A stretch of DNA of 64,000 nt from Planctomycetota bacterium. GTDB lineage: Bacteria; Planctomycetota; B15-G4; JADJEK01. Location: positions 32,001 to 96,000 of the forward strand of contig JBGAIQ010000012.1 in the NCBI GenBank assembly GCA_044225365.1, read 5' to 3'. Shown here piece by piece: positions 24,446 through 58,758 of this stretch. How positions within the stretch are numbered: position 1 is the first letter of the stretch; each line of letters opens with the position of its first letter. The notes under the pieces were generated by a model. That model worked only from the letters and a program-made list of their open reading frames with translations. It was not told where the DNA came from and did no database searches. The position numbers and the translations under genes are program-made.

Positions 24446-24447
24446 GC
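24089..24447 (+). repeat. ~360-bp direct repeat, copy 1 (C-terminal domain coding sequence)
   Basis: Aligns ungapped with 26682-27040; about 23 mismatches by manual count. Confidence 0.9.
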
Positions 24448-24497
24448 GGTTGGAGCGGCGCGCGTCTTGGACTCGCGCCCAAAGATGGTTCTCGCCC

Positions 24498-37670: not shown

Positions 37671-37741
37671 GGGAACTCCTGGCCCAGGATCGGGTCGCGA
37701 CGAAGAAGACGATGCGCGCGCGCTGCGCGAGAGGCCTCGAA

Positions 37742-39790
37742 TCAGTTGCCGCCGGTGCCGGCACCGCCGCCCGTGCCCCCGCCGTTGCCTGCTCCATTGC
37801 TGGGCGGCGTCGTCGGAGGTGCGTCGGCCGGGTTCTCGGCGGGCGGCTCGCTAGCGGGTTCGTCGGCGGCGGGTTCTTCGGGCGTCTCGACGCCCATCTC
37901 TTCCTCCGCCGGTACTTCCGCACCGCGCGCTTCGGGGAAGTCCTTGTCGAGCTCACCGGTGACGATGCGCTCCAGCATGCTGCGGGTCGGCCAATAGCGC
38001 TCGTCCGTGAGCTGCTCCTGGAGGCGAATCATCTCGGGCTGTTGCGGATGGAGCTGCAGCGAGCAGCGCAATTGGAAGCGTGCCCAGTCGTACTCGCCCT
38101 CGGAGGCGTTCTTCTGCGCGCGAAGATTGAACATCGCGCTCATCTTCTCGCGGCTCCACGGCAGGAGGCCGAGACGCGAACCGACGCGCACGCGCTCGTA
38201 GTAGGCGAGGCCTTCCTGGCCTTGCTGCGCGAGCACGTTCTCCGACATCACCGTCGGCTTGATCATGAAGATGATCTCGTCGCGCTTCAGGTGGTCGTCC
38301 TGACCTTCGAACGCGTGCCCGACGAGCGGGAGGTCGCCGGCCCAGGGGACCTGCGAACGGCTGCGTGAGACGTCTTCGCGGAACAGACCACCGAGGATCG
38401 CGGTGTGACCCTCCGGAACGAGCACGTCGGTGAGCACCGTCTGGATGTTCTCGTCCGGGATCTGCTGATTCACGCCGTTCTGCGATTCGACGTCGCGGAA
38501 CACGACCTGCGAGACCTTCGGTGCGAGCTCCATGCGCACCCGCCCGTCCTTCAGGACGAACGGCCGAATGTCGAGCTGAACACCCGTGTCGATGAACTTG
38601 ATCGTCTGCAGCACCTGGTTCTCGACGACCGTCGTCTCGAGGTAGCCGACGCGCGTACCCACGAGGACCTTCGCGCGTTGACGATTGAGCGCAAGGACCT
38701 TCGGATTCGAGAGGAGCGTCACGTCGGTGATCTGATCGAGCGCGCGGATGAAGACGCCGACGTCATCGCCCGCGGTGATCCCGAGCTTCAGCGTTCCCGC
38801 GCCCGCCGCGACGTTGCCGGGATTGCTGAGAACGAAGTTGCGGTTCAGGTTCGTGACCGGCGGTGCCTTCACCGTCGTGCCATCGGCACCGAGGCCGTTG
38901 ATCGTGTCGGGGAAACCGAAGAAGCTCGAGAACTGGACGCCGTCGAGCAGTGCGAAGTCCACGCCGAACGCGTTCTGTTCATCGAGCGTGACTTGGAGCA
39001 CCGTGGCTTCGATCAGCACCTGCTCGGGCTGCGTGTCGAGCGATCGCAGGAAAGACTCGACGCGTTCGACGTTCTCTTCGACGTCATGAATGACGATCGC
39101 GCTCTCCAGCGCGTATTCGTCCTTCTCGGGCGTGTAGATCCCGGAGTCGCTCGACTGACTGCTGCCGGAGTTCGACGAGCCGCCGGCCGCACCACCCGCG
39201 GCACTGCTTCCGCCGCCGCCGCTATCCCCGCCGAGATCCTTCGTCGGAGTGATCTTGCCCTTGGGGGAGAGCAGGGGCTGCGCATACTCCATCGCGTCCG
39301 CGGGGCGCAGATAGTCGAGATGGATGCGCCGGCTCGACAGATTGTTCGGCGAGGAGCGGCGCGCCGCGAGCTCGTCCTTCGTGAAGACGTAGATGACGTC
39401 CCCGTTCTGCTCCCAACCGAGACCATTCGGAGTGAGCAAGCCGTCGAGCGCCGCTTCGACCGTGACGCCGTAGAGCGTCGCGTTGACCGTCTTCTGCACT
39501 CCGTCGCTCGGGACGATGTTGCGTCGCGCGGCCACGGCAAGTTTCGAGAGGACGTTCGTGACGTCATCGTTCTGGACGACGATGTCGCACGTCCCGAACT
39601 CCGTGACGCGCACTTCGGACGAACGGATCACGAGTTTGTCGGCGGGATTCGCCTTGTTCTCCTGGGGGACGTTGACACCGGGAGTCGGTGTCTTCGCGTC
39701 CTGCGCCAGTGCGGCCGAGTGGGCAGCTCCGACGCAGAAGACCGACCAGAAGAGGAAAGCGTGCTTGTCGGATCGAGGGCGAAGAGTCAT
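37742..39790 (-). CDS. Secretin (GspD/PilQ-type architecture)
   Basis: Signal peptide ALA-Q; N0/N3-like domains; QVLIEATVLQV, LLSNPKVLALNRQRAKVLVG, FIDTGVQLDIRP, AILGGLF, VPWAGDLPLVGHAF, IIFMIKPTV. An alternative start lies at 39808. Confidence 0.93.
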   Translation of the reverse strand: MTLRPRSDKHAFLFWSVFCVGAAHSAALAQDAKTPTPGVNVPQENKANPADKLVIRSSEVRVTEFGTCDIVVQNDDVTNVLSKLAVAARRNIVPSDGVQKTVNATLYGVTVEAALDGLLTPNGLGWEQNGDVIYVFTKDELAARRSSPNNLSSRRIHLDYLRPADAMEYAQPLLSPKGKITPTKDLGGDSGGGGSSAAGGAAGGSSNSGSSQSSDSGIYTPEKDEYALESAIVIHDVEENVERVESFLRSLDTQPEQVLIEATVLQVTLDEQNAFGVDFALLDGVQFSSFFGFPDTINGLGADGTTVKAPPVTNLNRNFVLSNPGNVAAGAGTLKLGITAGDDVGVFIRALDQITDVTLLSNPKVLALNRQRAKVLVGTRVGYLETTVVENQVLQTIKFIDTGVQLDIRPFVLKDGRVRMELAPKVSQVVFRDVESQNGVNQQIPDENIQTVLTDVLVPEGHTAILGGLFREDVSRSRSQVPWAGDLPLVGHAFEGQDDHLKRDEIIFMIKPTVMSENVLAQQGQEGLAYYERVRVGSRLGLLPWSREKMSAMFNLRAQKNASEGEYDWARFQLRCSLQLHPQQPEMIRLQEQLTDERYWPTRSMLERIVTGELDKDFPEARGAEVPAEEEMGVETPEEPAADEPASEPPAENPADAPPTTPPSNGAGNGGGTGGGAGTGGN

Positions 39791-40151
39791 CGTTCGTTCA
39801 ACTCTCATTCGACGCGACCAATGGAACGGGTGCCTGCGCACCGCGACTGCGGCGACCCGTCGACGAGGTTCGTCCGCACTTTCCAACGCTGTCTTGCTCT
39901 TGCGGGAGATAGAGTCCTGAAAGGTATTGGCCCCGAGGCTTCGGATCTCGCGAGAATCGCAAGGATCCATCCTCCTGTTCAGCCAGTCCCGCACCGCAAG
40001 GGCGAACTTTACGGGTTTCATCCGGAAGGCGTGACGAAGGACTCTAGAAAAAACGTGCAGTTCACGCTTTGCTGCGGATTCAGCGCGTGGCGGCGACTCC
40101 GCCGAATCGGACTTTTGGACGGGTGTCCTTGAATCGAGATCGGAGTGAACC

Positions 40152-41300
40152 ATGACCGAGGCCGGCAATAGTGAAGCGACCACCCTGACCGAGCCCGCAC
40201 CGGTAATCGAGTCACCGGAGTCGAAAGCCTATCGCGCGGGCGTCGAGTTCTTCCTCGCGCCGCTCGTCCCGCTCCTCGCCGACGAGTCGATCTCCGAGAT
40301 CATGGTCAACGGTCCGAGCGACATCTACATCGAGCGTGGCGGCAAGATCGAGGTGAGCGGCGTCCATTTCCGGGACGAAGACGAACTGCTCGCCGCTGCG
40401 AACAACATCGCTCAATACGTCGGCAAGAGCATCAGCCCCGCGGATCCAATTCTCGACGGTCGTCTGCCCGATGGCTCCCGCGTGTGTATCGTCCTGGCGC
40501 CGATCGCGGCCGGCGGAACCTCGATCAATATTCGCCGCTTCCTGCGCCGCGCCGTCACTCCGCAGTTCCTCCTCGATCGCAAGGCGATCACGCCGGAGGC
40601 GCTCGAGTTCATCCTTCTTGCCGTCGAAGCGGAGCTCAACGTCGTCGTCAGCGGTGGTACGGGCTCTGGTAAGACAACCCTTCTCAACATCCTCTCGACC
40701 GCCTTCTCCGACAGTCAGCGAATCGTGGTCATCGAGGACACCCGCGAACTGCAGATCCAAAAGCGGCACGTCGTCCAGATGGAAGCGCGGCCGGCCGACG
40801 TGTACGGCAAGGGGCAGATCACGGTCCGCGACCTGTTCGTAACCTCCCTTCGTATGCGTCCCGACCGCATCGTGGTCGGCGAAGTCCGTCGCGGCGAAGC
40901 CCTCGACATGGTGCAGGCGATGACCTCCGGCCACCGCGGCTCGCTCGCCACCCTTCACGCCGACACGCCTTCACAGGCCTGCGGGCGTCTCGAGACGATG
41001 TGTCTCCTCGCGGACGTCGGACTACCCCTCCAGGCGCTGCGACGACAGATCGCGCTCGCGCTCGACATCGTCATCCAGGTCGCGCGTCTCCATGATGGAC
41101 GCCGTCTCGTCACGCACATCTCGGAGATCGAACTCGACGAAGCCACGCTCACGTATCAGATCCACGACATCTTCCATCTCGACACCAGCGACGGCACACC
41201 GCGACTCGTCTACACGGGACGCAAGCCGAAGCTCGCGGCCGAGATCGGCTGGCGCGGACTCAGTTCAAAAGTTCGCGAGACGAAGGCAATCTTCACCTGA
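40152..41300 (+). CDS. cpaF: CpaF/TadA family pilus ATPase, short form
   Basis: [58 protein letters not shown]. Confidence 0.95.
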   Translation: MTEAGNSEATTLTEPAPVIESPESKAYRAGVEFFLAPLVPLLADESISEIMVNGPSDIYIERGGKIEVSGVHFRDEDELLAAANNIAQYVGKSISPADPILDGRLPDGSRVCIVLAPIAAGGTSINIRRFLRRAVTPQFLLDRKAITPEALEFILLAVEAELNVVVSGGTGSGKTTLLNILSTAFSDSQRIVVIEDTRELQIQKRHVVQMEARPADVYGKGQITVRDLFVTSLRMRPDRIVVGEVRRGEALDMVQAMTSGHRGSLATLHADTPSQACGRLETMCLLADVGLPLQALRRQIALALDIVIQVARLHDGRRLVTHISEIELDEATLTYQIHDIFHLDTSDGTPRLVYTGRKPKLAAEIGWRGLSSKVRETKAIFT

Positions 41301-41444
41301 TATCGGTTATCGTGACCTCGCACCCCCGGTCGACATCGCGTCGATCGCGGAGAGCTTGGGTTCACGAATTCGGGCGATTTCGCCCGCCGTGGATCGAGTG
41401 GGTCCGGTGTTCCACCCATGGCTTCGGGTGGATCGAGAGATCGA

Positions 41445-41654
41445 GTGAATACGGAAACCGAGAATCAGTTCCTCGCGACGACGCGCCAACTGCCGGAGCT
41501 CGCCTCCGACGAGAGCGGCCAGGTCGTCATCGAGTGGACGTTGATCACTGCTACCGTGGTGATCCCGATGGGACTCATGGGTCCCGGGCTCGTCAACATG
41601 ATGTTCTACTACTTCTATCGCATCGCCGGGACCATCGCGCTGCCCTTCCCGTGA
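41445..41654 (+). CDS. Flp-type pilin / minor pilin
   Basis: GTG start; DESG|QVVIEW cleavage motif with +5 Glu followed by a hydrophobic helix. Confidence 0.75.
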   Translation: MNTETENQFLATTRQLPELASDESGQVVIEWTLITATVVIPMGLMGPGLVNMMFYYFYRIAGTIALPFP

Positions 41655-41740
41655 CCACCCGTGAGTTCGAGTTCGCGAGCTGCGTCGTCGATGCAGCGAC
41701 AAGACAAGACGTGAATCGCCCGCAAAAGGAGAATCCTGCC

Positions 41741-41968
41741 GTGTCCAACGAAACCACGACCCGTCCGGTGTCTTCCCTCAACCGCTTCAAGAACGCGATG
41801 CGCGAGCTGCATGCGGACGAATCGGGACCGAACACGGTCGAGTGGATCCTCCTGATCATCATCGCGCTCGTTCTCGTCGTCGCGATCTTCGTGTTCGCGA
41901 ACTTCGTGATCGACAAGTTCAAGCAGAAGGAAAACCAGGTCACTTCGGACGCCTTCTTGACCAAGTGA
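41741..41968 (+). CDS. flp: Flp family type IV pilin (probable major pilin)
   Basis: AAGGAG RBS, GTG start; DESG|PNTVEWILLIIIALVLVVAIF; followed by a stem-loop. Confidence 0.88.
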   Translation: MSNETTTRPVSSLNRFKNAMRELHADESGPNTVEWILLIIIALVLVVAIFVFANFVIDKFKQKENQVTSDAFLTK

Positions 41969-41986
41969 CGTGAACGCCAGCGAGAT

Positions 41987-42019
41987 CTCCGCGTGGACGG
42001 GAGCCATCCCGCCGCGGAG
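41987..42019 (+). terminator. Stem-loop directly after the flp pilin gene
   Basis: CTCCGCG..CGGGA-GCCA-TCCCG..CGCGGAG; no U-tract. Confidence 0.5.
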
Positions 42020-42036
42020 GCTCGTGGAGTCTCGCG

Positions 42037-42828
42037 ATGGATTCCGACACGCTTCCTCCAGCCACGACGGTCGCTACGCCCTCGGGCGAGGCGGACGCCG
42101 TGGTGAATCCGCCGAGTTCGACGGCGGAATCTCCGACGGGGAGTCCGGCGGTTGCGATCGACGCACGCGTCGCCTGGATCGCGGGACTCTGCCTCACGGC
42201 GGTGGTCGCATCGTCGCGTCAGATCCTCGCGAAGACGCCGGATCATGGGTACTTCGCAGACTCCATCGCGTGGGTCGTCCTCGGCACGGCGGCCGCGCTC
42301 GACATCGCGTTCCGCCGCATTCCGAACGTTCTCACCTATCCCGCGATCTTGCTGGGACTGCTCATCAACGTCGTGATGCCGGCCATCACCGCGGTGATCG
42401 GACCGAACGTCGTCCAATCGTGGCTCGGCGGCAGCGATACGCCGCGCGACGGACTTCTCGGCTTCGGCTCGTGCGCGATCTTCGGGCTCGTGAGCTTCAT
42501 GTTGCGCGGGGTCGGAGGCGGCGACGCCAAGACGCTCGGCGCGTTCGGCGCATTGCTTGGTTTCTCGCGAGCTTGGCCCGCCCTCTTCAACTGCCTGCTC
42601 GTCGGCGCCGTGATCAGCATCGTCAATCTCGCGGTGCGCGGCGAGTTCATCCGCAAGCTGCAAGCGCTGTTCTGTTCCATGTTCACCGCCGTGATCCTGT
42701 CGCGGCGTCCCGATCACGTTCAGGTGTTCGCGAATCGCGAAGCGCCGTTCGTGCTCTCGCTGTTCCTGGGTTTCGCGCTATCGCGATGGGTGGAACTCCA
42801 CCGCTTCGTGTTCGGATTCATCGGGTGA
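42037..42828 (+). CDS. Prepilin peptidase (A24, TadV/CpaA-like)
   Basis: LDIAFRRIPNVL and GGGDAK (the two catalytic Asp); multi-TM; adjacent to the pilins. Confidence 0.93.
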   Translation: MDSDTLPPATTVATPSGEADAVVNPPSSTAESPTGSPAVAIDARVAWIAGLCLTAVVASSRQILAKTPDHGYFADSIAWVVLGTAAALDIAFRRIPNVLTYPAILLGLLINVVMPAITAVIGPNVVQSWLGGSDTPRDGLLGFGSCAIFGLVSFMLRGVGGGDAKTLGAFGALLGFSRAWPALFNCLLVGAVISIVNLAVRGEFIRKLQALFCSMFTAVILSRRPDHVQVFANREAPFVLSLFLGFALSRWVELHRFVFGFIG

Positions 42829-42831
42829 CGC

Positions 42832-43752
42832 ATGCGCTCTCGTTTTGACCGCCTGCTGCGCGTGGCTCCTGCGACCGTCGCTCTCTTGACGGTCGGAGTC
42901 GTCGCCACGATGCTCGCCTCGCGACCCGATCGACTCGCGCAGTCGTTCGGTCTCGACTTCGCCGAAGAAAGCGCGCGACTCGTCATCGGTTGCATGGTCG
43001 TCGCCTCCGTGGCGTTCCTCGCGGCGGCGTACAAGCTGCTGCGAACCCTTCTCGCGTCGGGGAAGAGCTTCGTCGAATGGCGCAAGCGCAACGAACCGCA
43101 GAAGGGTTTTGCCGAGGCCGGCGTGGTGATGATCGAGTTCACGCTCCTGGCGCCCACGGTCTGGCTCATCATGGCGATCGTGGTGCAGCTCGCGCTCATC
43201 GCCGAAGCCACGCTCGTCGTCCGCTATGCCGCTTACACCGCAGTGCGCGCGGCGATCGTCCGCACCGAGCGGAACGCGATCGGGCAGGAGGATCTCGGAG
43301 TGAGTCCCGGCAAGGTAGAGGAGTCCGCAAAGCTCGTGCTCTGCTCCCTCTCACCCAAGATCCCCAACACCGACAACGACTCCGCGCACGCGATGCTCAA
43401 CATCTTCGCCGCGCAGAACGGCGTGTGGGGCGACAAGAATTTCCATCGGCGATATCAGTACGCGGATGACTCGACGACCGTGAAGACCACGCTCGACGAT
43501 CCGCCGATCGAGATGCCTTTCGTCGGGGACACGGGCCTTCCGAACCTGTTCGCGCCGAAGCTCGTCGAATGCGAGGTCACGTACCTGTACGCGACGCAGA
43601 TCCCCGGCGTCACGCTCCTCCCTGGCATCCTTCAGGTTTCGGACGGCTACAAGGCATTCAAGATCATCCAGCGCGTGCGAATGCAGAGCACGGGTGCGCG
43701 TCAATCCAATCCCATCGGCGTCGCCGGCACGATGAATACGATCTTCCCATGA
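42832..43752 (+). CDS. TadE-like pseudopilin with long membrane-spanning N-terminal extension
   Basis: AG|VVMIEFTLLAP...VVRYAAYTAVRAA TadE motif at about residue 97. Confidence 0.85.
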   Translation: MRSRFDRLLRVAPATVALLTVGVVATMLASRPDRLAQSFGLDFAEESARLVIGCMVVASVAFLAAAYKLLRTLLASGKSFVEWRKRNEPQKGFAEAGVVMIEFTLLAPTVWLIMAIVVQLALIAEATLVVRYAAYTAVRAAIVRTERNAIGQEDLGVSPGKVEESAKLVLCSLSPKIPNTDNDSAHAMLNIFAAQNGVWGDKNFHRRYQYADDSTTVKTTLDDPPIEMPFVGDTGLPNLFAPKLVECEVTYLYATQIPGVTLLPGILQVSDGYKAFKIIQRVRMQSTGARQSNPIGVAGTMNTIFP

Positions 43753-45101
43753 AGCTACTCACGAATCGCGAACGCAATCTCGTGACCGATCTGAAGCCGC
43801 ATGCGCCGAGCGCGGTGGATGTCTTCGCGCGACTTCACAGCGAGGAGAACTCGGGGTCGGATGTGCCCGCGCGAGTCACGGGCTTCGCAGCACGCTTGCA
43901 CGGCGATCGCCGCGGCGCGATCACGGTGCTCTTCATCTTGCTCGCATTCGTCTTCTTCATGGGTCTCGCCGGCGTTTGGAACATCGGGCAGGCGACGAAG
44001 TCGCGCATGCGCACGCAGGTCGCGGCGGACACCTCCGCCTATGGTGCCGCGACCTGGATGAGCCGCGGCATGAATCAGATCACCGCCGCGAACATCCTGA
44101 TCCAGCGCAACGCGAGCGCGTTCGCGATCGCGTTCGACTGCATTCCGATGGGCATCGTCTGGCTCATCTTGGTGATCAAGAATTGGGCCGAGGCCGTCGA
44201 GGACGCGTGCGGTGCGTGTCTCATCGCATGCGCCGCCTGCGGCGCTGCCGTCGCCGCCTATATTGCAGCGGTCGAAGTCCCGGTTGTCGCGAACTACATC
44301 GCCCAAGCTTGGCCGGTCGCGGCTTCGAACCTGACGACATTCTGGAGTCGCGTCGAGACACTGAAGGAATTCCAGGACAAGTGGGTCCAGGAGATACCGA
44401 ACGTCATCGAAGCGCAGCGCGGCAAATTCGCGGATCATTACGGCGTCACGCTCCGCTACACGCAACCGGGCGCGAGCGATGGCAAGGTCCGTCTTCCGGT
44501 CGAAGAGGGCAATTTCCTGACGGCGCTTCCGACGTTCACCTACCGGTTCTTCTCCGACGACGACAACATCCCCGATCACTACGATTTCGATATCGTTCAG
44601 CTCGGCAAGGCGGAGGACGAGTGGAAGAAGCTCGAAGTGGTGGGGTACGTCTTGGGACTCATGTTGAACGGCATGAATCACTACACATTGTCCACCCAGA
44701 CGGGGCCGTTCGAGCAGGCGCCCTCGTCGCTCGAGGACTGGGAGAAGTTCTCGCTCGTCGCGACCGCTCTGTCCGAGAACATCAGCGACAAGACGCGCAT
44801 CGCGCCCGGCATCTTCACCCACGCGTTCGCACCGGACGACGTCAACATCGCCTACGCCCAGGCGGAGACCTACAACGGTCCTTCCGAAGCGCTTGCCAAG
44901 ATTCCCGGGCTCGGCGCCATCACGAATCTGATGCCGTTCCGGGTCTGGACGTTCTTCGGCTTCGAATGGCAGCCGCGTCTCACGGTCGGCGACCAGGTGA
45001 AGTCGGCGCTCGAGAACGACAGCAACATGGCGAACATCTGGGGAAGGATCCACTTCGACAACGGACAGTTCGACGACGCTCCCAAGATGGCGAACCACTG
45101 A
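43749..45101 (+). CDS. TadG-like pseudopilin (Tad N-terminal domain)
   Basis: RRG|AITVLFILL...NIG...TQVAADTSAYGAA; ATGA overlap with the upstream gene. Confidence 0.85.
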   Translation: MKLLTNRERNLVTDLKPHAPSAVDVFARLHSEENSGSDVPARVTGFAARLHGDRRGAITVLFILLAFVFFMGLAGVWNIGQATKSRMRTQVAADTSAYGAATWMSRGMNQITAANILIQRNASAFAIAFDCIPMGIVWLILVIKNWAEAVEDACGACLIACAACGAAVAAYIAAVEVPVVANYIAQAWPVAASNLTTFWSRVETLKEFQDKWVQEIPNVIEAQRGKFADHYGVTLRYTQPGASDGKVRLPVEEGNFLTALPTFTYRFFSDDDNIPDHYDFDIVQLGKAEDEWKKLEVVGYVLGLMLNGMNHYTLSTQTGPFEQAPSSLEDWEKFSLVATALSENISDKTRIAPGIFTHAFAPDDVNIAYAQAETYNGPSEALAKIPGLGAITNLMPFRVWTFFGFEWQPRLTVGDQVKSALENDSNMANIWGRIHFDNGQFDDAPKMANH

Positions 45102-45102
45102 T

Positions 45103-45711
45103 ATGAGCAATCATCGTTCAGCGCGGCGTCGCAGCGCACGGTCCGAACGCGGCACCGTCGCGGCCGAGTCGAGCCTGGTCCTGATCGTCCTCCTCTTCTT
45201 CCTCCTGATGTCTCCTGCGATCTGGAAGATGTGGTGGAACGAGCACATCGCGCGCGCCGAGGCGGAACGCGACACGTTCCGGCTGACCTCGACTCCCGCC
45301 GACATCAGCTCCGCGACGAATTTCCAGCCCGAACTCGATTTCGCGACGCAGGGCGACTTGATCGGCCTTGGCTTGTGGGAATTGCACAAGCCGGAAACCG
45401 CCGATATCCCGAACATCTCCGACATCAGCTCCGGCAACGAGCTCAAGGACTTCCCGAACAAGGTCGTGATTGGGCGAGCGACGCGACACGTCCAGTACAG
45501 CTCTGGCTGGAGTCAGTATCGCGGCGAGTTCGACATCTTCCGCTACTCGTACACCCTGCGCCCGAGCTGGAATTGGCAGGGGTACCCGCTCTTCCACACG
45601 CAGGACATGTCGGAGCGCGGCAAGATCAAGGACTGGATGGAAACGGCGTATCGCGACACGCTCACCAGCACGGTGACCGACAAGCTCGCGCTCAAGACCG
45701 ATCCGTTCTGA
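45103..45711 (+). CDS. TadE/TadF-like pseudopilin
   Basis: Basic leader, ERG|TVAAESSLVLIVLLFFLL. Confidence 0.75.
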   Translation: MSNHRSARRRSARSERGTVAAESSLVLIVLLFFLLMSPAIWKMWWNEHIARAEAERDTFRLTSTPADISSATNFQPELDFATQGDLIGLGLWELHKPETADIPNISDISSGNELKDFPNKVVIGRATRHVQYSSGWSQYRGEFDIFRYSYTLRPSWNWQGYPLFHTQDMSERGKIKDWMETAYRDTLTSTVTDKLALKTDPF

Positions 45712-45720
45712 TCGAACGAG

Positions 45721-47190
45721 TCACTTCGTTTCCGCTTTCGCGAGGCGCTTGCGCAAATCCGCGAGGTCCGCGTCCACCGCGAGATAGCGCGTGAGCTTCT
45801 TATGCGCGTCCGCATCCGCAAGCACTTGCTTCGAACGAGCCCATTCCGTGTCGCCGTCGGCGGCGTCACCGAGCATGCTGTGCCACGGTTGGAATCGTCC
45901 GTGGTAGTACGCCATGAGGCACATCTCCGCGGCGACGAAGAGCGCGAGCACCTTGGCGAAGTTCTCGCGCGACGAGCGAACCGCGTGGATGGCGACGGCG
46001 AGGAGCAGCAATGCCCCGGGAACGAGCAGAACGGCCGCATCGATCGCGTTGTCGTAGTCGAACACGTACGCGAACCCGGCCATGACGGCGACGCCGACGC
46101 AACCCGCGATTCCGAGGACGCTCGTTCCGATGTTCACGATCTTCATGAAGCGCGGCTCGAGCGTGAGTTCGCGTAGGGCGTGCGCCGCGGCGATCGCGAA
46201 GAGGGGCACGAGCGGGAGCAGGTAGTGCTTCTGCTTCTGCGGCAGGATGGAGAAGACGACGAACTCGGCGATGAGACCGAGGGCGACGAACTGCATCGAG
46301 CGATCCGTCTTCTCCAGCGCGCTCTTCTTCCAGCGAACGATCATGAGCGGTAGGACGAGCGCGACCGGGAAGATGACGGAGAAGATCTTGCTGATGTAGT
46401 ACCAGGGTGGGCCACGATGCGTCGCGTCACCCTTCAGGGCCTCGACCTTGACGCCGAACGGCATGAGGAGCTGGCCGAAGAGTTGGCCCGGTGCTCCGTC
46501 GACCTTGGCGAGGATCACGCCGTACCAGGCAAATCCGGCAACGAGTGCGGCGAGCAGAACGATCACGAATTCGCGCGAGGCGAGTTTCTTGCCCTGCTTG
46601 TTGCGCAGAAGGAGGACCGCAATCGGGAGGATGACGGTGACGAATGCAACCGTCGCTTTCGACAACAGCGCGAGTGCGAATGCGCCGCCGAAGGCGTAGA
46701 GCCAGGAGCGCTTTCCCGTACTGTCGAACCGCTCGAAGCAGGCGAGCGCGGCCGTGCTCGTCATCGTGAGCCACATCTCGGCGTCACCGCGCCGGCCTGA
46801 GATCCCGAACTGGAAGGAGAGCACGAGCAGCGCGGAAGCGAGCAATGCGAACCGCGGCCCCTTCATCGCCTGCGTCCAGGAGAAGACGATCGCGAGCAGG
46901 AGGAGAGCCGCGACGAACGACGGGATGCGCGTGGAGAAGAGCGTGGTTTCGCCGAGAACGTTCGCCGTGGCGGATGCGAGCCAGTAGTACAGCGGCGGTT
47001 TCTGCAGCCGCGGCGAACCTTCGAACATCGGCACGAGATAGTCGTGCGACGCGACCATCGTCTTGGCGACTTCGTGGCAACGCCGTTCGCTCGTCCGGTC
47101 GACGGGCTCGACTCCGAGTCGATATCCGAGCATCAGCACGGCGAACAGGAAGAGCAGCACGACGGGCCGCGTGGAAGCCGTTGCATTCAT
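45721..47190 (-). CDS. ArnT/PMT-family (GT-C) glycosyltransferase
   Basis: SERRCHEVAKTM, PRLQKPPLYYWL, TRIPS, LSKA, HRGPPWYY, KQKHYLLP. Confidence 0.9.
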   Translation of the reverse strand: MNATASTRPVVLLFLFAVLMLGYRLGVEPVDRTSERRCHEVAKTMVASHDYLVPMFEGSPRLQKPPLYYWLASATANVLGETTLFSTRIPSFVAALLLLAIVFSWTQAMKGPRFALLASALLVLSFQFGISGRRGDAEMWLTMTSTAALACFERFDSTGKRSWLYAFGGAFALALLSKATVAFVTVILPIAVLLLRNKQGKKLASREFVIVLLAALVAGFAWYGVILAKVDGAPGQLFGQLLMPFGVKVEALKGDATHRGPPWYYISKIFSVIFPVALVLPLMIVRWKKSALEKTDRSMQFVALGLIAEFVVFSILPQKQKHYLLPLVPLFAIAAAHALRELTLEPRFMKIVNIGTSVLGIAGCVGVAVMAGFAYVFDYDNAIDAAVLLVPGALLLLAVAIHAVRSSRENFAKVLALFVAAEMCLMAYYHGRFQPWHSMLGDAADGDTEWARSKQVLADADAHKKLTRYLAVDADLADLRKRLAKAETK

Positions 47191-47201
47191 GGGCGAACAT
47201 C

Positions 47202-47225
47202 GTAGGGGCGCACGGCAGTGCGCCC
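47202..47225 (+). repeat. GTAG-family REP element
   Basis: GTAGGGGCGCACGGCAGTGCGCCC, one mismatch to the copy at 11656. Confidence 0.85.
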
Positions 47226-47296
47226 GATATGGGATCACACAAAACGTCGTGCGTCCGCAGAACGGCCATCGAACGGCAACGCCGGACATGCAACGG

Positions 47297-47385: not shown

Positions 47386-50355
47386 CTAGAGTGATTGTAG
47401 GTGAATCATGTCACGGTCAAGGACGAAGGGACGCGACAGGACGAACACCTGGTCCTTCGTGAACTTGTCCGACTTCTTGAACTGAACGTACATCGACGTG
47501 TCGCCATAGGTCAGGTGCGCATGGACGCGAACGTCCTCGGCGCCCTGCTTCTGCAGCAGTTCCTCGAGGCGATGGCAGACGGCCCAGGCGTCGACACGGA
47601 CTTCCATCTGGAGGCGCGGCTTCGCCGGTTCGAGTCGCGCGAGGAGTCGGTTGTACTCCTCTTCGCTGAACACGGGACCCGTGAGCCGGATCTTCGTGAG
47701 GTGTGGGACGAGCTCGACCTTCAAGCATCCGTTCGGAACGTTGATCTCGAGGAACGCCTTGAACTGCTCCGCCGTGAGGCCGAGCAGCGTTCCACGGTCG
47801 ATCAGGTCGAGGCCGGGATCACCCGTCATCATTCGCGCTGCGGCCATCGCGAGCTTGCCGGAGTCGCCGCCCGCGCTCTCGATCGCCGACAGCGTCGCGA
47901 GTTCGCGATGGATGTCGGGCAGTCGCAGCTTGGCGTCGGCGTTGCCGATCGCGGCGAGCTCGATCGTCTGCTGCAGCTCGGCGAGCAGCTCCTTGCGACG
48001 CTTCGGGATCGCGCCGGAGGATTGGTCGGCCTTCTCCAGTGCGTTGAGATCGACCGAGATCGCGCGCATTCGCGTGTACGCGGTGTTGTCGCCGCCCATC
48101 GCGCGTTGGATGACCTCACCCAGTTCGCGGATCAGGTCCTCGCGTTTCTGGAACATCGAAACGAGCGGCTTGCCCGTGCGCTTCGCGTCCTCCGCTTCGG
48201 CGATCTGGTTCATCTCGGCGCGAATCTCGCGCAGGCGTTGGATCGCCGCGGGATCTCCCGCAGCCGCACGATCGGCGAGCGCGGCCATCTCGCGGACGAG
48301 AGCCGAGCGCCGGTCGTTGCCGCCGCCCGCCTTCATGTCCTCGGCCTCGAGCGAGGCGAGCTCGGTCTGAACTTCCTTCAACCGCTTGATCGCGTCGGGA
48401 TCGCCCTTCGCGGCCTTGTCGAGGAGGTCGTTCATCTCGTTGAGGAGCGCCGCACGCTTCGCTTCGCGGGCTGCGATCGCGTTCGGATCGCCCTGCCCCG
48501 AACCGCCGCCCTTCTCGACGCTCTTGTTGGCGAGCTTGCGCAGCTCCTCGTTGATCTCCTTCACGCGCTTCGCGGCGTTCTTGTCGCCCTGCGCCGCGAG
48601 CTTCATCTGCTCGTCGAGCTCCTGCTGGAGAGCGACGCGCTTCGCCGCGTCGGCGTCGCCCGTCATCGGCTCGAGCTGAGCGAGCTCTTTTCGGATCTGC
48701 TCGAGGCGCTTGATCGCGGCCTGGTCGCCGTTCGCCGCCTTCTCGACGAGCGCGTCCATCTCGGAGAGCAGCTTCTCGCGCTTGTCGGCGATGCGCTGCT
48801 CGGAGAGGGCCGCGACGACGATCGTCACCGCGCGTTCGGGATCGTCACCCGTTTGCTCGGTGTAGTCGACCGTCTTGTAGCGCGGGTGCTCCATCTGGAT
48901 GCGGAACTGGCCGTGAGCGATCTGCACCTGGCCGTTGCCGTTCTGATCGAGCGGCACCGGGATGGCGTCGTTCGGTTTGCCGTTCTCACGGATCGTCACG
49001 TCCCACGCCGGCACGGGCGGCACGGTCGAGAACTTGACGAGCACCGTCTTCGGCGCCGCGCGCGAGATGTTGAACAGCTTGTCGGCGAGCACCGTCGTGC
49101 CCTCGACGACGACGACCTTCGCGGGGGCATCGCCCACCGCGCCCACCGGGATCGTGCCGGTGAACTGCCCGGAGTCGTCGACCTGCAGCGGATCGCCGTT
49201 CTCGGAGTTGCCTTTGTGCTTCACCTTCAGAACGGCGTGTTCCGGTTTGTCCTTCACGGTGCCGCGGATCACCACCTCGGGGCGATCCGTCGTGAAGGTT
49301 TCCTTCTCGACCGTGACCACGGGTTTTACCGAGACCGACCGCCACCAGATGAAACCGAGCGTTCCGACCGCGGCGATCACCCACAGCAGGATCGAGAGGA
49401 GGACGAGCACGTTCGCCTTCGCGGGCGGCGCATCCATCTCCTCGAGTTCGCCGGGCGTGCGCCCGCTTCCGCGCATCACGAACCCGCCGATCGCGCCGAG
49501 TCCTTCCTCGGCCGAAGCGAGGCGTTCGCGCAGCGGCTTCGCGAGCATCTTCGCAATGAGGTTCGAGAGGTCCTCGGGGAAGTCCGCGATGACGTCCTTG
49601 ATCTTCGGCAGCGTCATCTGCGCCGAGGCATGCCAGTACATCCACTTCGGCTTCTCGTCCATCGACGTCGTTTCCGCGGCCGCCTTGGTCGCGTACGGGT
49701 CGTAGATCGACGGGAACTGCTTGCGGTAGAGGGTGCGCCCGAGCGCGTACTCGTAGGCCGCCATGCCCAGCGAGTAGAGGTCCATCTTCGGCGACTCTTG
49801 GCCGAGCGACGAATCGAGCAGCTCGGGGGCCGCGTACTGGACCGTCGAGAAATTCATCGTGTCTTCGACGCCCTGGCGCTTCGCGAGACCGAAGTCCGTG
49901 ATCTGCCAGTGACCGTGACGCGACCGCACGATGTTGTTCGGCTTGATGTCGCGATGCAGGATCTGCGGATCGGCGTGATGCACCACGGACAACGCTTTCA
50001 GCGTGTCGTGCAGCATCTCGCGCACGTCCTCGGGGCTCGCCGGCTGATCGGAGATCCAGTGCTTCAGGTTCTTGCCCGAGAGCTCCATCCCGATCCACGG
50101 ACCGACTTCGTCGTCGATGCCGAAGCCGAAGACCTCGACGATGTACGGGCTCGACCCGACGGCGAGCAGGAGTTCGACCTCCTTGCGCAGGACGTCGAGC
50201 TGCTCTTCGGAATCGGCCTTCCAGTTCTGCAGGATCTTCACGGCGGCGGGACGCGTGATCCCGTGGCCCATGTGCTGGATGGCCTTCCAGACGACGGTGT
50301 ATCCGCCCGGATCGATCTGTTCGGTCAGTTCGAAGTCACCGAGTCGTGTCTTCAT
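47386..50355 (-). CDS. Membrane-anchored Hanks-type Ser/Thr protein kinase with large ectodomain
   Basis: AAVKIL, HRDIKPNN, DFGLAK, YAAPE, DLYSLG; one TM helix; beta-rich domains, six helical repeats and C-terminal alpha/beta domains. Confidence 0.95.
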   Translation of the reverse strand: MKTRLGDFELTEQIDPGGYTVVWKAIQHMGHGITRPAAVKILQNWKADSEEQLDVLRKEVELLLAVGSSPYIVEVFGFGIDDEVGPWIGMELSGKNLKHWISDQPASPEDVREMLHDTLKALSVVHHADPQILHRDIKPNNIVRSRHGHWQITDFGLAKRQGVEDTMNFSTVQYAAPELLDSSLGQESPKMDLYSLGMAAYEYALGRTLYRKQFPSIYDPYATKAAAETTSMDEKPKWMYWHASAQMTLPKIKDVIADFPEDLSNLIAKMLAKPLRERLASAEEGLGAIGGFVMRGSGRTPGELEEMDAPPAKANVLVLLSILLWVIAAVGTLGFIWWRSVSVKPVVTVEKETFTTDRPEVVIRGTVKDKPEHAVLKVKHKGNSENGDPLQVDDSGQFTGTIPVGAVGDAPAKVVVVEGTTVLADKLFNISRAAPKTVLVKFSTVPPVPAWDVTIRENGKPNDAIPVPLDQNGNGQVQIAHGQFRIQMEHPRYKTVDYTEQTGDDPERAVTIVVAALSEQRIADKREKLLSEMDALVEKAANGDQAAIKRLEQIRKELAQLEPMTGDADAAKRVALQQELDEQMKLAAQGDKNAAKRVKEINEELRKLANKSVEKGGGSGQGDPNAIAAREAKRAALLNEMNDLLDKAAKGDPDAIKRLKEVQTELASLEAEDMKAGGGNDRRSALVREMAALADRAAAGDPAAIQRLREIRAEMNQIAEAEDAKRTGKPLVSMFQKREDLIRELGEVIQRAMGGDNTAYTRMRAISVDLNALEKADQSSGAIPKRRKELLAELQQTIELAAIGNADAKLRLPDIHRELATLSAIESAGGDSGKLAMAAARMMTGDPGLDLIDRGTLLGLTAEQFKAFLEINVPNGCLKVELVPHLTKIRLTGPVFSEEEYNRLLARLEPAKPRLQMEVRVDAWAVCHRLEELLQKQGAEDVRVHAHLTYGDTSMYVQFKKSDKFTKDQVFVLSRPFVLDRDMIHLQSL

Positions 50356-50358
50356 CGC

Positions 50359-51174
50359 CTATTCCTTCACCTGTTTCGAAGTCTCTGCCAATCGCTTCCG
50401 AACGAACCAGACGAGCGCGTCCGCGATGGTCTCGTCGGCGTTCGCGTCGACTTGCGCCGACGCTGCGGACTGATCCCAGCCCATCACCACGCCGAGAGTT
50501 CGTCGCGGGTCGCTTCCCGTTGCTTCGGGGAATCGATCCGTACTGAGGCCGCGTCCCGTGGGCGCACGCAGTCCGCAAAGTGCGGCCTGCAGTTGCGACC
50601 AACGGGTCGTCGCCATCTTGTAGTTGCCGGCCTGCTCGAAGCGCCACGCATCGTTGTAGAGCGTGACCGCTTCTGGGGGCAGGCGATTCTCGTTGACCCA
50701 CTTCTCCATGCGATCCCCGATCCGCATGTAGGCCTGACGCCAGTGGACCGCGGTCATCGGCACCGGCTGAGCCTGCTTGTCGCCGGAGAGGAGCATCGCT
50801 CCGCCGATCCCGAGGATCAGCAAGATGACGATGAGCAGGAGGAGGAGTGAGGTGCGCGACAGTCCGCCCGGCCCGGCCGCGGCGTGGCTCTCGACGACGA
50901 GCTTCATCTTCGGCGAGATCTGGATCTCTTCGCCGCTCGCGACGCGAGTCTCTTCCGTGATGCGCTTGCCGCGGACCTTGGTTCCCGCTGCCGCGAGGTT
51001 GACGACGACGAGCCGCGTGCCGGTATCGCGCACGACGAGGTGTTCCCACGCGATCGATTCGTCGCGCAGTTGCACGCGCGCCGTGGGCGCTCGGCCGATC
51101 ACCACATCGCCGTTCTCGACGCGATGGCTGGTTCCGTCATCCGCTCCGCCAATGACTTTGAGGTAGAAGACCAT
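50359..51174 (-). CDS. FHA-domain single-pass membrane protein
   Basis: ATG 51174; VIGRAPTARVQLRDESIAWEH FHA pattern; TM LLLLLIVILLILGIGG; helical extracytoplasmic domain. Confidence 0.88.
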   Translation of the reverse strand: MVFYLKVIGGADDGTSHRVENGDVVIGRAPTARVQLRDESIAWEHLVVRDTGTRLVVVNLAAAGTKVRGKRITEETRVASGEEIQISPKMKLVVESHAAAGPGGLSRTSLLLLLIVILLILGIGGAMLLSGDKQAQPVPMTAVHWRQAYMRIGDRMEKWVNENRLPPEAVTLYNDAWRFEQAGNYKMATTRWSQLQAALCGLRAPTGRGLSTDRFPEATGSDPRRTLGVVMGWDQSAASAQVDANADETIADALVWFVRKRLAETSKQVKE

Positions 51175-52130: not shown

Positions 52131-52959
52131 TGACGATCCTCCAGGCCCAGAACGTACCGGCGGCGGTGAGCAGCACCGCGATGAGGAGCAGCGCCTGCCC
52201 GAAGGGCCGCGTGAACAGCCAGCCGACGGCCTGCATGTCGATCACCGTCGTGAAACCGAGCATGATGAACGGAGCGAACGCGAGCACCTTGATGTTCATG
52301 CGACCTTCCGAGGTCGCGACGAACACTTCCTTGCGCATGCGATCGACCGATTCGAGAGAGTGCGCGAGACGCTCGAGCGTCTTCACGACGTTGCCGCCCA
52401 TGCGCTGGTTGATGACGAGCGCGGACGCGAAGAGCGTGAAGTCCTGCAGCGCGAGCCGGCGCTTCGCTTCCTCGATCGTCGAGGCGAAGTCGGCGCCCAT
52501 GTTCCAGTAGTTCGCGATGATGCGAAACTCGGTGCGCAGCGGTTCTTCACCGCGCTCGGCGACGCGTTCGATCGCCTGCACCAGCGACATGCCGGACGCG
52601 ACGCCCGAGCTGAGCTGGAGCACGGCCTTCGGCAACTGATCGTTCAGGAGCTTGCGCCGCTTCTGCCACGCGCGGTCGAGCAGGATCTTCGGCATGATCA
52701 CGCCGACGAACCAGAACGCGAGCAGGATCATCGGCACGGGCAGGAACAGGACGATCACGATCGGTGTGACGAGGGTGAAGATCCAGAAGATCGTCACGCT
52801 CCTGCGACCGTCGTAGGGCTCAGGCGACAAGCGCCAGTGCATGTGCTCGAGATGGGCGACGTCGCGCCGGAACTTCGCGAGGATCTGCCAACGCATCGAG
52901 ATGATCAGCAGCGTGATCGACAGACCGATCATCGCCGCGATCGCGAGACTCATCATCAT
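52117..52959 (-). CDS. tadB: TadB (T2SSF domain) platform protein
   Basis: QLPKAVLQLSSGVASGMSLVQA, EPLRTEF, INQRMGGN, TSEGRM. Confidence 0.92.
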   Translation of the reverse strand: MMMSLAIAAMIGLSITLLIISMRWQILAKFRRDVAHLEHMHWRLSPEPYDGRRSVTIFWIFTLVTPIVIVLFLPVPMILLAFWFVGVIMPKILLDRAWQKRRKLLNDQLPKAVLQLSSGVASGMSLVQAIERVAERGEEPLRTEFRIIANYWNMGADFASTIEEAKRRLALQDFTLFASALVINQRMGGNVVKTLERLAHSLESVDRMRKEVFVATSEGRMNIKVLAFAPFIMLGFTTVIDMQAVGWLFTRPFGQALLLIAVLLTAAGTFWAWRIVNADV

Positions 52960-54845
52960 GCGCTCGCCCTCCCGAACCAACGATCGAGATCGATGAGCCG
53001 CCGCTCGACGAGGTCGGCCATGAACGACGGCATGTAACCCGTGAGTTCGAGTCGCGGATTCTTGTTGCCGCCGGTCTGGCGCATGATGTCGCGCACCTCG
53101 ACCTCGCCGGTGTGCGGATGGATCCCGATCACTTCGGTGATCTGCGTGATGAGGCGCTTGCCGCTCTTCAGGCGGCGGATGAACACGATCATCTCGACGG
53201 CTTGCGAAACCTGACGGCGGATCGCGGCGATCGGCATCTCGACGGCCATGAGGCACATCGTTTCGATACGGGCGATCGCGTCGTTCGCGGAGTTCGAGTG
53301 GATCGTGGTCATCGACCCGTCGTGGCCCGTGTTCATCGCCTGCAGCATGTCGAACGCTTCTTCACCACGACACTCACCGACGATCACGCGATCGGGGCGC
53401 ATGCGCAGGGCGTTCTTCACGAGGTCGCGGATCGTGTACGAGCCGGTGCCTTCGACGTTCGACGGCCGCGTCTCGAGCGACACGACGTGTTCCTGCTGCA
53501 GCTGGAGCTCGGCGGCGTCCTCGATCGTCACGATGCGCTCGTCCGACGGGATGAACGCGGAGAGCACGTTGAGGAGCGTCGTCTTGCCGGAGCCGGTGCC
53601 GCCCGCGACCACGATGTTCTTGCGCGAGACCACGGCCGCTTCGAGCAGCGCATAGGCCGAATCCGTCATCGTGCCCCATTCGACGAGATTGCGAGCGTTG
53701 GGCCGCCGCGTGGGGAAACGCCGGATCGTGAGGCAAGGCCCCTTGAGCGCGAGGGGCGGGATGACGGCGTTGACGCGCGAGCCGTCCTTGAGGCGGGCGT
53801 CGACGAGCGGCGTCGAACGATCGATGCGACGGCCGAGCGGCGCGACGATGCGTTCGATGACGGCGACCAGTGCTTCGTCGCCGAGGAAAGTGCGGTTCGA
53901 GCGCAGCACCTTGCCGGCGCGCTCGACGTACACCTGCGTCGGGCTCACGATCATGATTTCCGTGATCGACGGCGTATCGAGCAGGTCCTGCAGCGGACCG
54001 AGCCCGAACACCATGTCGCAGATGACCTTCTTCAGGAACCGCGCGACGAGATAGAACTGGACGTTCTCGGGCGTTTCGTCGATCACGCCCGTCACGTTCT
54101 CGCGCAGACCGGTGTTGATCTTCTCGAAGTCCTCGCCGAACGAGTCCTTCGTGCCGAGCAGCTTCATGCGCTTCATGAGGCGACGCGTGAACTCGTCCGC
54201 GGCTTCCTCGAGCGCGATGTTGACTCCGGGGACGTTGATGCGACCGACGTCGAGCGTCGACGCCGCAGCCTGCTTCGAGAGCGCCGTGAGCAGGCGGTTC
54301 TCGTACACCATCGTGAGCATGCGCTTGCGCGTGAGCGGCGAGCCGAACAGCCGCTGCTGATACTCGCCGTGCATCAACTCATCGATGAAGTTGTTGATCT
54401 GCTGGAGCGACTCCTCGCTCGCTTCGAGATTCTCCTTACCCGCCCGCCGCAGGTCGAGCTTGCGGAGGACTTCGGTGTGGAGTTCGCGCTGCAGCGCGTT
54501 CAGGTCCTCGATCGCCGCGTCCGCTTCGGACGTGTCGGGTTTGTCGTCCTCCTGGAGGAGGTTGATCACGAACTCGGCGAGACGAACCTGGCTGATCGGC
54601 TTCAGCAGCGCCGACTTGCCGGGCGCGAGCTTCACGCCGTCGACGACGGCGGTCGTCGCCGCCGGATGCACGAGCAGTTCCCAGCCCTGCTCGGTGCGAT
54701 CGACCTGGATGTGGACCCGCGAGACGAAGCGCGAGGTCGTGAGCGGGATCGCGCACTCCTCGCTGCGTCCGATCGTGAATCCGGCCACGCCTTCGTAGCC
54801 GACCCACTGCTTGTTCTTGAGCGTGTCCTGGATGACGACGCGCAT
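52956..54845 (-). CDS. tadA: FHA-domain-fused CpaF/TadA ATPase
   Basis: N-terminal FHA (TIGRSEEC...VSRVH); [57 protein letters not shown]. Confidence 0.95.
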
Positions 54846-54851: not shown

Positions 54852-55694
54852 TCAGCCCCCCTGCGTGCCGCTCGCCGCGGGCGCGGGGGAGTTCGGCGCC
54901 GGAACGCGAGAGTTGGGCCGCAGGAGCAGGGTGATGTTGTTGGCGCTCGCCGACATCGCCTGGATCATCTCGACGGCCTGTTCGGGCGTGAGTTCGAGCG
55001 TGATCACGGAGCCATTCGATCCGCCGCCTTCACCGCCGGTGAACAGGAACTGCTGACGGCTGCCGCCGAGGCTCGAACCGATGCCGACGATGCGGATGTT
55101 CGAGAGGATCTCGGTCGACTTGAACTCGTCGGGGTAGGCCGTCTTGTCGGCGAGCTTCGAGAAGATCGCGCCGATCGCGGCCGAGGGGTTGTTCGGATCG
55201 ATCGTCGGATTGGCGCCGACGGCCTTGTTCTCGCGCGGCAGGTGATAGGTGGCGATCACGTCGACGCGATCGCCCGGCAACAGCAATCCACCCATGAGGT
55301 TCTCGTTGCTGACGCGCACGCCGAGAGCGCGCGTACCGGGCGCGAGGTTCGTGTCCTGGATCGGCTTCAGGTGGGCGTACTGGAGCGGCGTGCCCGCCGG
55401 GATCGGCATTCCGATCCGCTGGCCGCGCAGCGACTCCTTCTCGTCGGCCTTGTACAGCGTCTTCACGAACGGAGCGAGCGTGGAGCCCGCGGGGACCTGC
55501 ATCGCCTGGAGGTCGCGATCGGGATCGATCGTGTGGTTCGCCTCGAGGTCGTTCACGACGCGGAGGACGTTCTCCTTCGGTTCGGGAGGCAGGCCGGTGT
55601 TCGATGTCGCTCCCTGGATGTAGGTGAACGCGAGTCCGGTGGCGAAGACGCCGGCGACGACTGCGATCAGCAGGAGCAACTTGTTGTTTTCCAT
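54852..55694 (-). CDS. cpaB: Flp pilus assembly protein CpaB/RcpC
   Basis: N-terminal TM, SAF-like region, PGTRALGV, LLPGDRVDVI, ITLELTPEQA, ITLLLR. Confidence 0.93.
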   Translation of the reverse strand: MENNKLLLLIAVVAGVFATGLAFTYIQGATSNTGLPPEPKENVLRVVNDLEANHTIDPDRDLQAMQVPAGSTLAPFVKTLYKADEKESLRGQRIGMPIPAGTPLQYAHLKPIQDTNLAPGTRALGVRVSNENLMGGLLLPGDRVDVIATYHLPRENKAVGANPTIDPNNPSAAIGAIFSKLADKTAYPDEFKSTEILSNIRIVGIGSSLGGSRQQFLFTGGEGGGSNGSVITLELTPEQAVEMIQAMSASANNITLLLRPNSRVPAPNSPAPAASGTQGG

Positions 55695-56957: not shown

Positions 56958-56981
56958 GGGCGCACAGCCGTGCGCCCCTAC
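56958..56981 (-). repeat. GTAG-family REP element
   Basis: Exact reverse complement of 11656-11679; its TAG is the stop codon of 56978..58660. Confidence 0.88.
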
Positions 56982-58660: not shown

Positions 58661-58758
58661 GGTCGAGACGGCCGATCGGGGCAACCGGTGCAATCGGGAG
58701 TTCCGCACTCACGAAGAGACTTCACGCGTCGCCGTTGTTAGCAGCTCGACCCCTTTTC

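Follow-up and report, generated by a model that had tools for sequence, protein, structure and literature searches.

The PASTA-repeat kinases PknB, StkP and PrkC combine a Hanks-type serine/threonine kinase domain, a juxtamembrane segment, a single transmembrane (TM) helix and tandem extracytoplasmic repeats. Here we analyse a kinase of the same general build, encoded in a 64,000-nucleotide stretch of DNA from a Planctomycetota bacterium (assembly GCA_044225365.1, contig JBGAIQ010000012.1, positions 32,001 to 96,000; hereafter the window). It differs from the PASTA kinases in that its gene lies in a pilus operon whereas theirs lie in a cell-wall operon, in that its repeats are predicted to be all-helical hairpins that do not match PASTA, and in having an extra C-terminal domain. 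The subject of this work is its array of six hairpin repeats. We read this array as a modular stalk, placed in the periplasm, of a kinase that would control a Tad pilus through forkhead-associated (FHA) domains, and we hold this reading with little better than even confidence.

A threonine-phosphorylation pathway in type VI secretion pairs the kinase PpkA with an Fha protein (PMC3953482). This pathway resembles the present locus in that a membrane Hanks kinase with a periplasmic part is found together with FHA proteins in the operon of an envelope-spanning machine, and by analogy a kinase-to-FHA post-translational switch would act on the Tad machine in parallel to PpkA-Fha. However, the machine here is a Tad pilus, an FHA domain is fused to the motor ATPase, and the ectodomain is unrelated.

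CpaF proteins fused to FHA are themselves a recognised class of Tad motor, termed 'class III' CpaF in passages of PMC12019362, and according to passages of PMC8460266 the KilF protein of the Myxococcus Kil Tad-like system is one of them. The window cluster resembles these systems in encoding a CpaF with an N-terminal FHA domain together with a further FHA protein, but it differs from the published reports in that a dedicated Hanks kinase is present in the same operon in every relative examined. Specifically, the word 'kinase' occurs 0 times in the main text of PMC8460266, the FHA and forkhead passages of PMC12019362 name no kinase, and neither the passages of a Bdellovibrio Tad preprint nor those of a planctomycete kinase survey (PMC11032199) name a Hanks kinase in a Tad cluster; full-text searches likewise yielded none. 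In the literature searched, no receptor kinase embedded in a Tad pilus operon alongside FHA readers came to light.

The repeat array and its search against known families

The original prediction, made from the sequence alone, had placed six units of about 38 residues in the kinase ectodomain at 47887-48783 on the minus strand, corresponding to residues 525-823 of the 989-residue open reading frame (ORF). These units are borne out, with the array extending over residues 525-825. In a BLOSUM62 self-dot-plot all strong self-diagonals are confined to residues 525-823, and the units start at residues 525, 572, 633, 682, 737 and 786, giving periods of 47, 61, 49, 55 and 49 residues. The signal is far above chance: the top 28-residue self-match scores 81, compared with a mean of 32.5 (standard deviation 4.1) and a maximum of 44 in 200 shuffles of the repeat region, and 12 diagonals score at least 45 in the real region whereas none does so in any of the shuffles. 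When each unit is left out in turn, a profile of the other five finds it with E-values between 1.9e-14 and 5.1e-6, calculated for a search space (Z) of the 56,090 six-frame ORFs of the genome.

No internal gaps are needed to align the six units, which share the invariant columns R2, L5, E8, A16, G19, A23 and R26. The pattern that emerges, [KR]R..L..E[ML]..L..[RL]AA.GD..A..R[LM]..[IL]..EL..L with a conserved core of about 38 residues, is close to what had been proposed, since the earlier consensus ([KR]R..L..E[ML].......A..G[DN]..A..R[LVM]..[IV]..[ED][LM]..L) agrees with the seven invariant columns. The linkers are variable and in part Gly-rich, again as proposed; the one before unit 3 (residues 612-632) has 21 residues, is Gly-rich and is modelled with a predicted local distance difference test score (pLDDT) of about 40. 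A tandem repeat at the DNA level was sought in the window gene and not found, so the copies in this gene are old. No further copy was found at E<0.1 among the 56,090 six-frame ORFs, and the repeat is thus limited to one ORF of the genome despite some 90 Pkinase matches. A search of genome contigs for related loci, based on the low-information pattern AAGDP.A, gave only 1 locus. We also note that linkers 564-574 and 621-627 (about 48634-48666 and 48475-48495, minus strand) hold G-D-x-x-A-x-x-R remnants that match the middle of the profile, which suggests decayed half-units.

The array is one part of a larger protein, in which a kinase domain, a TM helix, a beta-rich region, the repeats, a connecting segment and a C-terminal alpha/beta domain follow one another in that order. 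The kinase part matches Pkinase (PF00069) over residues 9-280 with 116.8 bits against a cut-off of 31.7, and the catalytic residues can be read directly from the translation (K40, E59, HRD at 134-136, N141, DFG at 154-156, and P177-E178 of the APE motif). These motifs are nearly invariant in an alignment of the 12 proteins of the family, and by this score and these residues the protein is a Hanks-type kinase. The NCBIfam model PknB_PASTA_kin matches the kinase part only, with 109.5 bits against a cut-off of 450, and no NCBIfam model matches outside it. Kyte-Doolittle averages over 19-residue windows peak at 2.58 within residues 314-338, the sole membrane-grade hydrophobic stretch of the protein. 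Because a kinase requires ATP and a single TM helix follows the kinase domain, residues 339-989, and the repeats with them, should lie outside the cytoplasm, which matches the earlier placement of the units in an ectodomain. The membrane-proximal part of this segment (residues 339-515) probably forms two sandwiches resembling immunoglobulin (Ig) or CarboxypepD_reg domains: orthologues match CarboxypepD_reg weakly at about residues 440-500, with one of them (P0020) alone passing the cut-off at 32.7 against 32.3 bits, while this region of the window kinase has no Pfam match of its own. At the other end of the array, residues 824-853 are 80-97% identical in three close orthologues and have low pLDDT in the model.

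The repeat had been described as unrecognised and as distinct from PASTA, TPR and Sel1, and searches of Pfam, NCBIfam and PDB sequences all agree. With the repeat region as query at E<=10, no Pfam family reaches its cut-off, and PASTA, Sel1, HEAT and the TPR models (PF00515, PF07719 and related) are not listed; Sel1 (PF08238) is also unlisted for the whole kinase at E<=1, and the Sel1, TPR and HEAT models are unlisted for six orthologues at E<=0.1. That the library can detect such repeats is seen from the neighbouring gene at 36570-37850, in which it finds 19 TPR-type families. For PASTA (PF03793), the lack of a profile match is accompanied by a model in which the repeat region is all-helical. 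The best PDB sequence match has a meaningless E-value of 0.21, and the ESM Atlas returned no usable match to the repeat region.

A unit of about 35-40 residues with two antiparallel helices, and with small residues followed by G-D-x-x-A at their junction, is nonetheless similar to Sel1, TPR and HEAT repeats, and the array might in principle be a highly diverged solenoid of this kind that serves as a scaffold for protein-protein interactions. A search of 1.84 billion representative proteins with the six-unit profile bears on this. There are 27 matches at E<=0.001, of which 16 are this kinase family: 6 that had already been found by homology, 7 more with a Pkinase domain, and 3 fragments carrying the same repeats or the C-terminal domain. 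One other match, at E 1.2e-13, is a protein of 3,386 residues with 24 Sel1 repeats, which speaks for the solenoid; it accumulates about 5 bits per repeat through the common helix junction 'A.kGD..A...L'; the remaining 10 are short, weak and assorted. Beyond the lack of any Sel1, TPR or HEAT match at the thresholds above, an hhalign comparison of a 114-unit profile with the tandem Sel1 units of P0019 gives a probability of 0.33% over 20 columns, a weak test because its template is a single protein. The spacing also differs, with periods of 47-61 residues in the window kinase and 41-69 in orthologues, joined by variable linkers, compared with contiguous Sel1 units of about 36 residues and a fixed solenoid period of 34-36, and the predicted structure consists of discrete four-helix bundles rather than a continuous superhelix. 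A solenoid origin therefore seems highly improbable to us, and the shared G-D-x-x-A junction is probably a common solution to helix capping and not a sign of kinship. An hhalign comparison of single units with single Sel1 units (probability 0.04%) was discarded as unfair because the unit frames are permuted. The same helix junction is seen in two metagenomic proteins, P0022 and P0026, which are unrelated and Q/Y/P-rich, have paired 'KAAQGD..A...LQ.IQ' hairpins with a weak DUF5681 match, and belong to a different family. In its general kind the repeat is familiar, a helical hairpin repeat or tandem bundle, but as a family it is uncatalogued, narrowly distributed and restricted to planctomycetes.

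Copy number and conservation among orthologues

Every full-length homologue found is a planctomycete kinase with this same architecture, and the number of units differs widely among them. Among 12 proteins, one has 4 units, six have 6 (the window kinase included), two have 8 and two have 13, while a partial sequence has at least 10. Counts from whole genomes widen this range: one relative has at least 23 units running to the end of a contig and 12 more at another contig end, two have at least 10, one has 3, and a distant one has 2 to 4 weak units. At the lower limit, the orthologue G377 has 0 units; it retains the kinase, the beta region and the C-terminal domain, and a further beta-strand region and a Pro-rich linker run into the latter. 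The beta-sandwich domains and the C-terminal domain are thus kept while the number of units runs from 0 to at least 23. Assembly breaks fall within the array of the orthologous gene in three related genomes (L014 G001:C65, L015 G001:C128, L016 G009:C46, L017 G004:C610), where the copy number may exceed 30.

A role of the array as a length element is supported by its variable copy number and by the other linker that takes its place in G377, and the extensible spacer of the original prediction gains indirect support from the same observations. The concept has a precedent in length-dependent signalling across the periplasm, which involves Lpp length and the reach of RcsF (PMC5736177). The present case is similar in that a sensor spans a set distance between membranes and the length of a helical element matters; it differs in that other proteins and another pathway are involved and the variable-length element lies within the kinase, where we infer a link to the width of the periplasm.

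Gain of units can be followed in the longer arrays. In close orthologues the six units correspond one-to-one by position, and unit 6 is best conserved, being 95-97% identical to the unit at the same position in P0002 and P0004. In the long arrays neighbouring internal units share 63-79% identity, and at the DNA level a tandem repeat of 144 or 156 bases is still detectable, which points to separate, lineage-specific amplifications. The gene itself is rare. Of 40 close relatives 4 have it, one through a weak C-terminal match only (E 2.5e-4), and a sample of 400 other genomes of the phylum yielded it in 5.

Predicted structure of the array and the C-terminal domain

An AlphaFold2 model of residues 515-989, built from an input of 12 sequences, has a mean pLDDT of 77.8 and a predicted template-modelling score (pTM) of 0.33. 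In every modelled unit two helices are joined by a turn of three residues at the G-D-P position, and the pLDDT of the units lies mostly between 73 and 91. The model thus upholds the helical hairpin that had been predicted and refines it, in that the hairpins pair into four-helix bundles. Specifically, in an all-against-all structural search, four-helix bundles match each of the model ranges 1-105, 104-216 and 217-316 with structural Z scores of 10-12 and root-mean-square deviations (rmsd) of 2.3-3.3 over about 100 residues, and these ranges are exactly the unit pairs 1+2, 3+4 and 5+6. Adjacent units would accordingly form three four-helix bundles on Gly-rich linkers. Pairing within the chain predicts the alternation of short and long periods seen in the sequence, and in the model the long low-confidence linkers do fall between unit pairs. 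A Foldseek search with the whole 475-residue model returned nothing at E<=0.001.

The structural neighbours of the bundles suggest two further ways in which the array might act. Several of them are periplasmic sensors of chemoreceptors and histidine kinases, namely the ligand-binding domain (LBD) of McpS (Z 12.1), the HK9 and QseE sensor domains, the TorS sensor and the McpN LBD, so that each hairpin pair could be a ligand-sensing module and the array a multi-site sensor; the high conservation of the units and their invariant charged residues would suit such a role. However, unrelated designed bundles score alike, the values of 10-12 for unit pairs against 4HB_MCP or TarH-type sensors fall within the range for any helical model, and no sensor family is matched in sequence. 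A copy number between 0 and at least 23, with a zero-unit orthologue that keeps the rest of the system, also suits a specific binding site poorly, and we consider ligand sensing quite unlikely.

Other neighbours are cytoskeletal, with alpha-catenin at Z 10.6 and talin fragments at Z 9.4-9.6, again within the noise range for helical models. With its serial four-helix bundles on flexible linkers the model does look like the talin rod, the alpha-catenin M region and vinculin, but the likeness is at the level of the fold only, with no sequence relation, and those proteins are eukaryotic and cytoplasmic. One could imagine from this a tether that senses load or distance. The C-terminal domain would dock with the Tad machine on its secretin or outer-membrane side, and a pull by the pilus or a deformation of the envelope would extend or unfold the chain of bundles, switching the kinase and then the FHA-fused motor. 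If true, this would be a bacterial counterpart of talin-type mechanosensors on a Ser/Thr kinase, with a sensitivity tuned over evolution by the number of repeats. Only the pilus context and a generic likeness in fold to talin- and catenin-type bundles, with Z scores in the uninformative range, speak for the idea, and we regard it as a long shot. Because such scores are ordinary for helical models, all of these bundle matches describe the geometry of the model and not kinship with sensor or cytoskeletal families.

The C-terminal domain (residues 854-989) gives a clearer picture when folded alone, with a pLDDT of 88.1, a pTM of 0.78 and two alpha-beta-beta-alpha-beta modules. Foldseek places the periplasmic domain of YscD first (E 9.2e-4), followed by EscJ, CdsD, domain D2 of PrgK and RBM2 of FliF, with BON proteins lower; its probability for PrgK D2 and FliF RBM2 is 0.98-1.00. 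In VIA-align the domain reaches Z 8.8 against PrgK D2 and Z 8.0 against EscJ (rmsd 2.3 over 64 residues), and the ESM Atlas gives weak leads to PrgH and BON with scores <=0.81. Pfam has no match to the domain, and a word-index search with it alone finds only three close orthologues. The predicted domain bears a moderate resemblance, at the fold level, to modules of the ring-building-motif (RBM) or BON-like type.

With the membrane-proximal beta-rich region on one side of the array and a putative RBM-like domain on the other, the stalk reading can be stated as a sequence of steps. The array would determine the distance between the inner membrane and the C-terminal domain, which would extend in the direction of the secretin, the peptidoglycan or the outer membrane and dock there. 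The condition of the envelope or pilus machine would be relayed to the cytoplasmic kinase, and the FHA domains in the CpaF motor ATPase and in the FHA membrane protein would recognise the phospho-threonine marks made by the kinase. The overall interpretation in the original prediction, of a periplasm-spanning spacer or a mechanosensing module, is partly supported, for the spacer and not directly for mechanosensing.

Several observations weigh against this reading. The structural scores of the bundles are at or below about 13, which the search tool deems uninformative for helical models, and the pairing of units comes from a single model with a pTM of 0.33, 12 input sequences and no map of predicted aligned error. 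The RBM-like match of the C-terminal domain is middling (Z 8-8.8, Foldseek E 9.2e-4). No PP2C phosphatase was found among the window genes scanned, the single PP2C_2 match of the genome being on another contig, and in lacking a cognate PP2C among those genes the locus also departs from the PpkA/Fha/PppA system. Conservation is a further point. Between close orthologues the units are 78-79% identical, as much as the kinase (73-84%) and the C-terminal domain (76-83%), whereas the beta region reaches only 33-53% and the linkers 59-61%. Across 114 units the charged residues R2, E8, D20, R26 and E33 are nearly invariant, as are A16, G19 and A23. Because a passive spacer needs no such conservation, the units may bind something or each other, and their strong conservation argues for specific contacts, be it inside one chain, from chain to chain or to a partner.

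Simple pairing within the chain also does not fit those orthologues that have 13 units or uniform periods of 41 residues. Both features suit pairing between chains better. The hairpins of two kinase molecules would then build a dimeric rod, in which the kinase domains come close enough for trans-autophosphorylation. Dimerisation is a common means of activating Hanks receptor kinases, and a broad hydrophobic face on helix 1 (positions 5, 9, 12 and 16 plus 6, 13 and 17) could serve this purpose. On the other hand, the monomer model already satisfies the hairpins in one chain, and we think the dimeric rod unlikely. A stalk of variable length thus remains the reading that we adopt for the array.

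The Tad pilus cluster and what the finding means

The kinase gene sits in a complete Tad pilus cluster, as identified by Pfam within the window (Table 1). In the order of its own strand the genes are CpaB, FHA-CpaF, TadB, TadC, FHA-TM, the kinase and a PMT_2 glycosyltransferase, and the rest of the cluster, from the secretin to the TadG-like gene, spans 37742..45711. Judged by its predicted products, this is a Tad/Flp (type IVc) component set, with a Flp-like match that is below threshold. The gene for the FHA-TM protein ends 4 bases before the start of the kinase gene and adjoins it in all six relatives that have that flank. All 5 relatives whose upstream flank is complete share the order CpaB, FHA-CpaF, TadB, TadC, FHA-TM, kinase, among them one with only 26% identity in the kinase; in a sixth, the contig stops after FHA-TM.

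Table 1. Coordinates of the kinase gene, its parts and the surrounding Tad genes in the window.
Feature	Position	Strand	Basis and remarks
Whole gene P0001, receptor-type Hanks Ser/Thr kinase, 989 residues	47386..50355	-	ORF list, translation
Kinase domain, residues 9-280	49516..50331	-	Pfam
Single TM helix, residues 314-338	49342..49416	-	Kyte-Doolittle
Membrane-proximal beta-rich region, residues 339-515	48811..49341	-	weak CarboxypepD_reg matches in orthologues
Repeat unit 1, residues 525-564	48664..48783	-	model helices 5-27, 31-46
Repeat unit 2, residues 572-611	48523..48642	-	partner of unit 1 in model
Repeat unit 3, residues 633-672	48340..48459	-	dot-plot, alignment, model
Repeat unit 4, residues 682-721	48193..48312	-	partner of unit 3 in model
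Repeat unit 5, residues 737-776	48028..48147	-	dot-plot, alignment, model
Repeat unit 6, residues 786-825	47881..48000	-	partner of unit 5 in model
Conserved connecting segment, residues 826-853	47797..47880	-	orthologue identity
C-terminal alpha/beta domain, residues 854-989	47389..47796	-	model, Foldseek, VIA-align
FHA-TM protein: FHA domain, TM helix, periplasmic tail (271 residues)	50359..51174	-	FHA PF00498 E 4.2e-9; Yop-YscD_cpl E 1.7e-7
TadC platform protein	51192-52130	-	T2SSF PF00482
TadB platform protein	52117-53256	-	T2SSF PF00482
CpaF-type pilus ATPase with N-terminal FHA	52956..54845	-	T2SSE E 3.6e-58; FHA residues 24-89, E 5.6e-6
CpaB/RcpC	54852..55694	-	PF16976 E 4.4e-14
Secretin	37742-40183	-	Pfam; own-genome secretin match
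Second CpaF, without FHA	40152-41300	+	Pfam
Flp-like gene	41312-41968	+	match below cut-off: 20 vs 33.5 bits
Prepilin peptidase	41970-42848	+	Pfam
TadE	42832-43752	+	Pfam
TadG-like gene	43569-45101	+	Pfam
PMT_2/ArnT-like glycosyltransferase, directly downstream of kinase	45721-47289	-	Pfam

Two candidates from this neighbourhood were set aside. The PMT_2 glycosyltransferase is probably not a conserved partner, as there is no PMT_2 match after the kinase in L015 and L022, whose downstream flanks were examined; and a plus-strand ORF at 38405-40132 (575 residues), which looked conserved in a relative, is only a shadow frame of the minus-strand secretin at 37742-40183. The cluster has two CpaF-type ATPases, the minus-strand one with an FHA domain (52956-54845) and the plus-strand one without (40152-41300). 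Both are conserved in relatives, and they could be a regulated and an unregulated motor, or motors for extension and retraction. The FHA-TM protein matches the cytoplasmic domain of YscD, a T3SS ring protein (Yop-YscD_cpl), while the C-terminal domain of the kinase best matches the periplasmic domain of YscD, so that the two together resemble a YscD-like protein split over two chains. The cluster is flanked by two large FG-GAP repeat proteins and two CarboxypepD_reg-repeat proteins (flanking-protein coordinates 21731-27035, plus strand; 56978-58708 and 61287-63998, minus strand), and the genome (G000) has about 90 Pkinase matches, 13 secretin matches and one PP2C_2 match.

Because the family is rare (5 of the 400 other genomes sampled from the phylum), the scope of these findings is narrow for now. 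Within it, the repeat is a small and well-defined family, absent from Pfam, that is suitable for the domain databases. A stalk of 0 to at least 23 copies, together with a ring-type cap domain, makes a model of reach across the periplasm testable by altering the number of repeats, and a receptor kinase in the Tad operon is a concrete candidate for the missing input to the FHA-bearing Tad motors. The finding thereby bears on how Tad pili are switched on and how their pulling is sensed.

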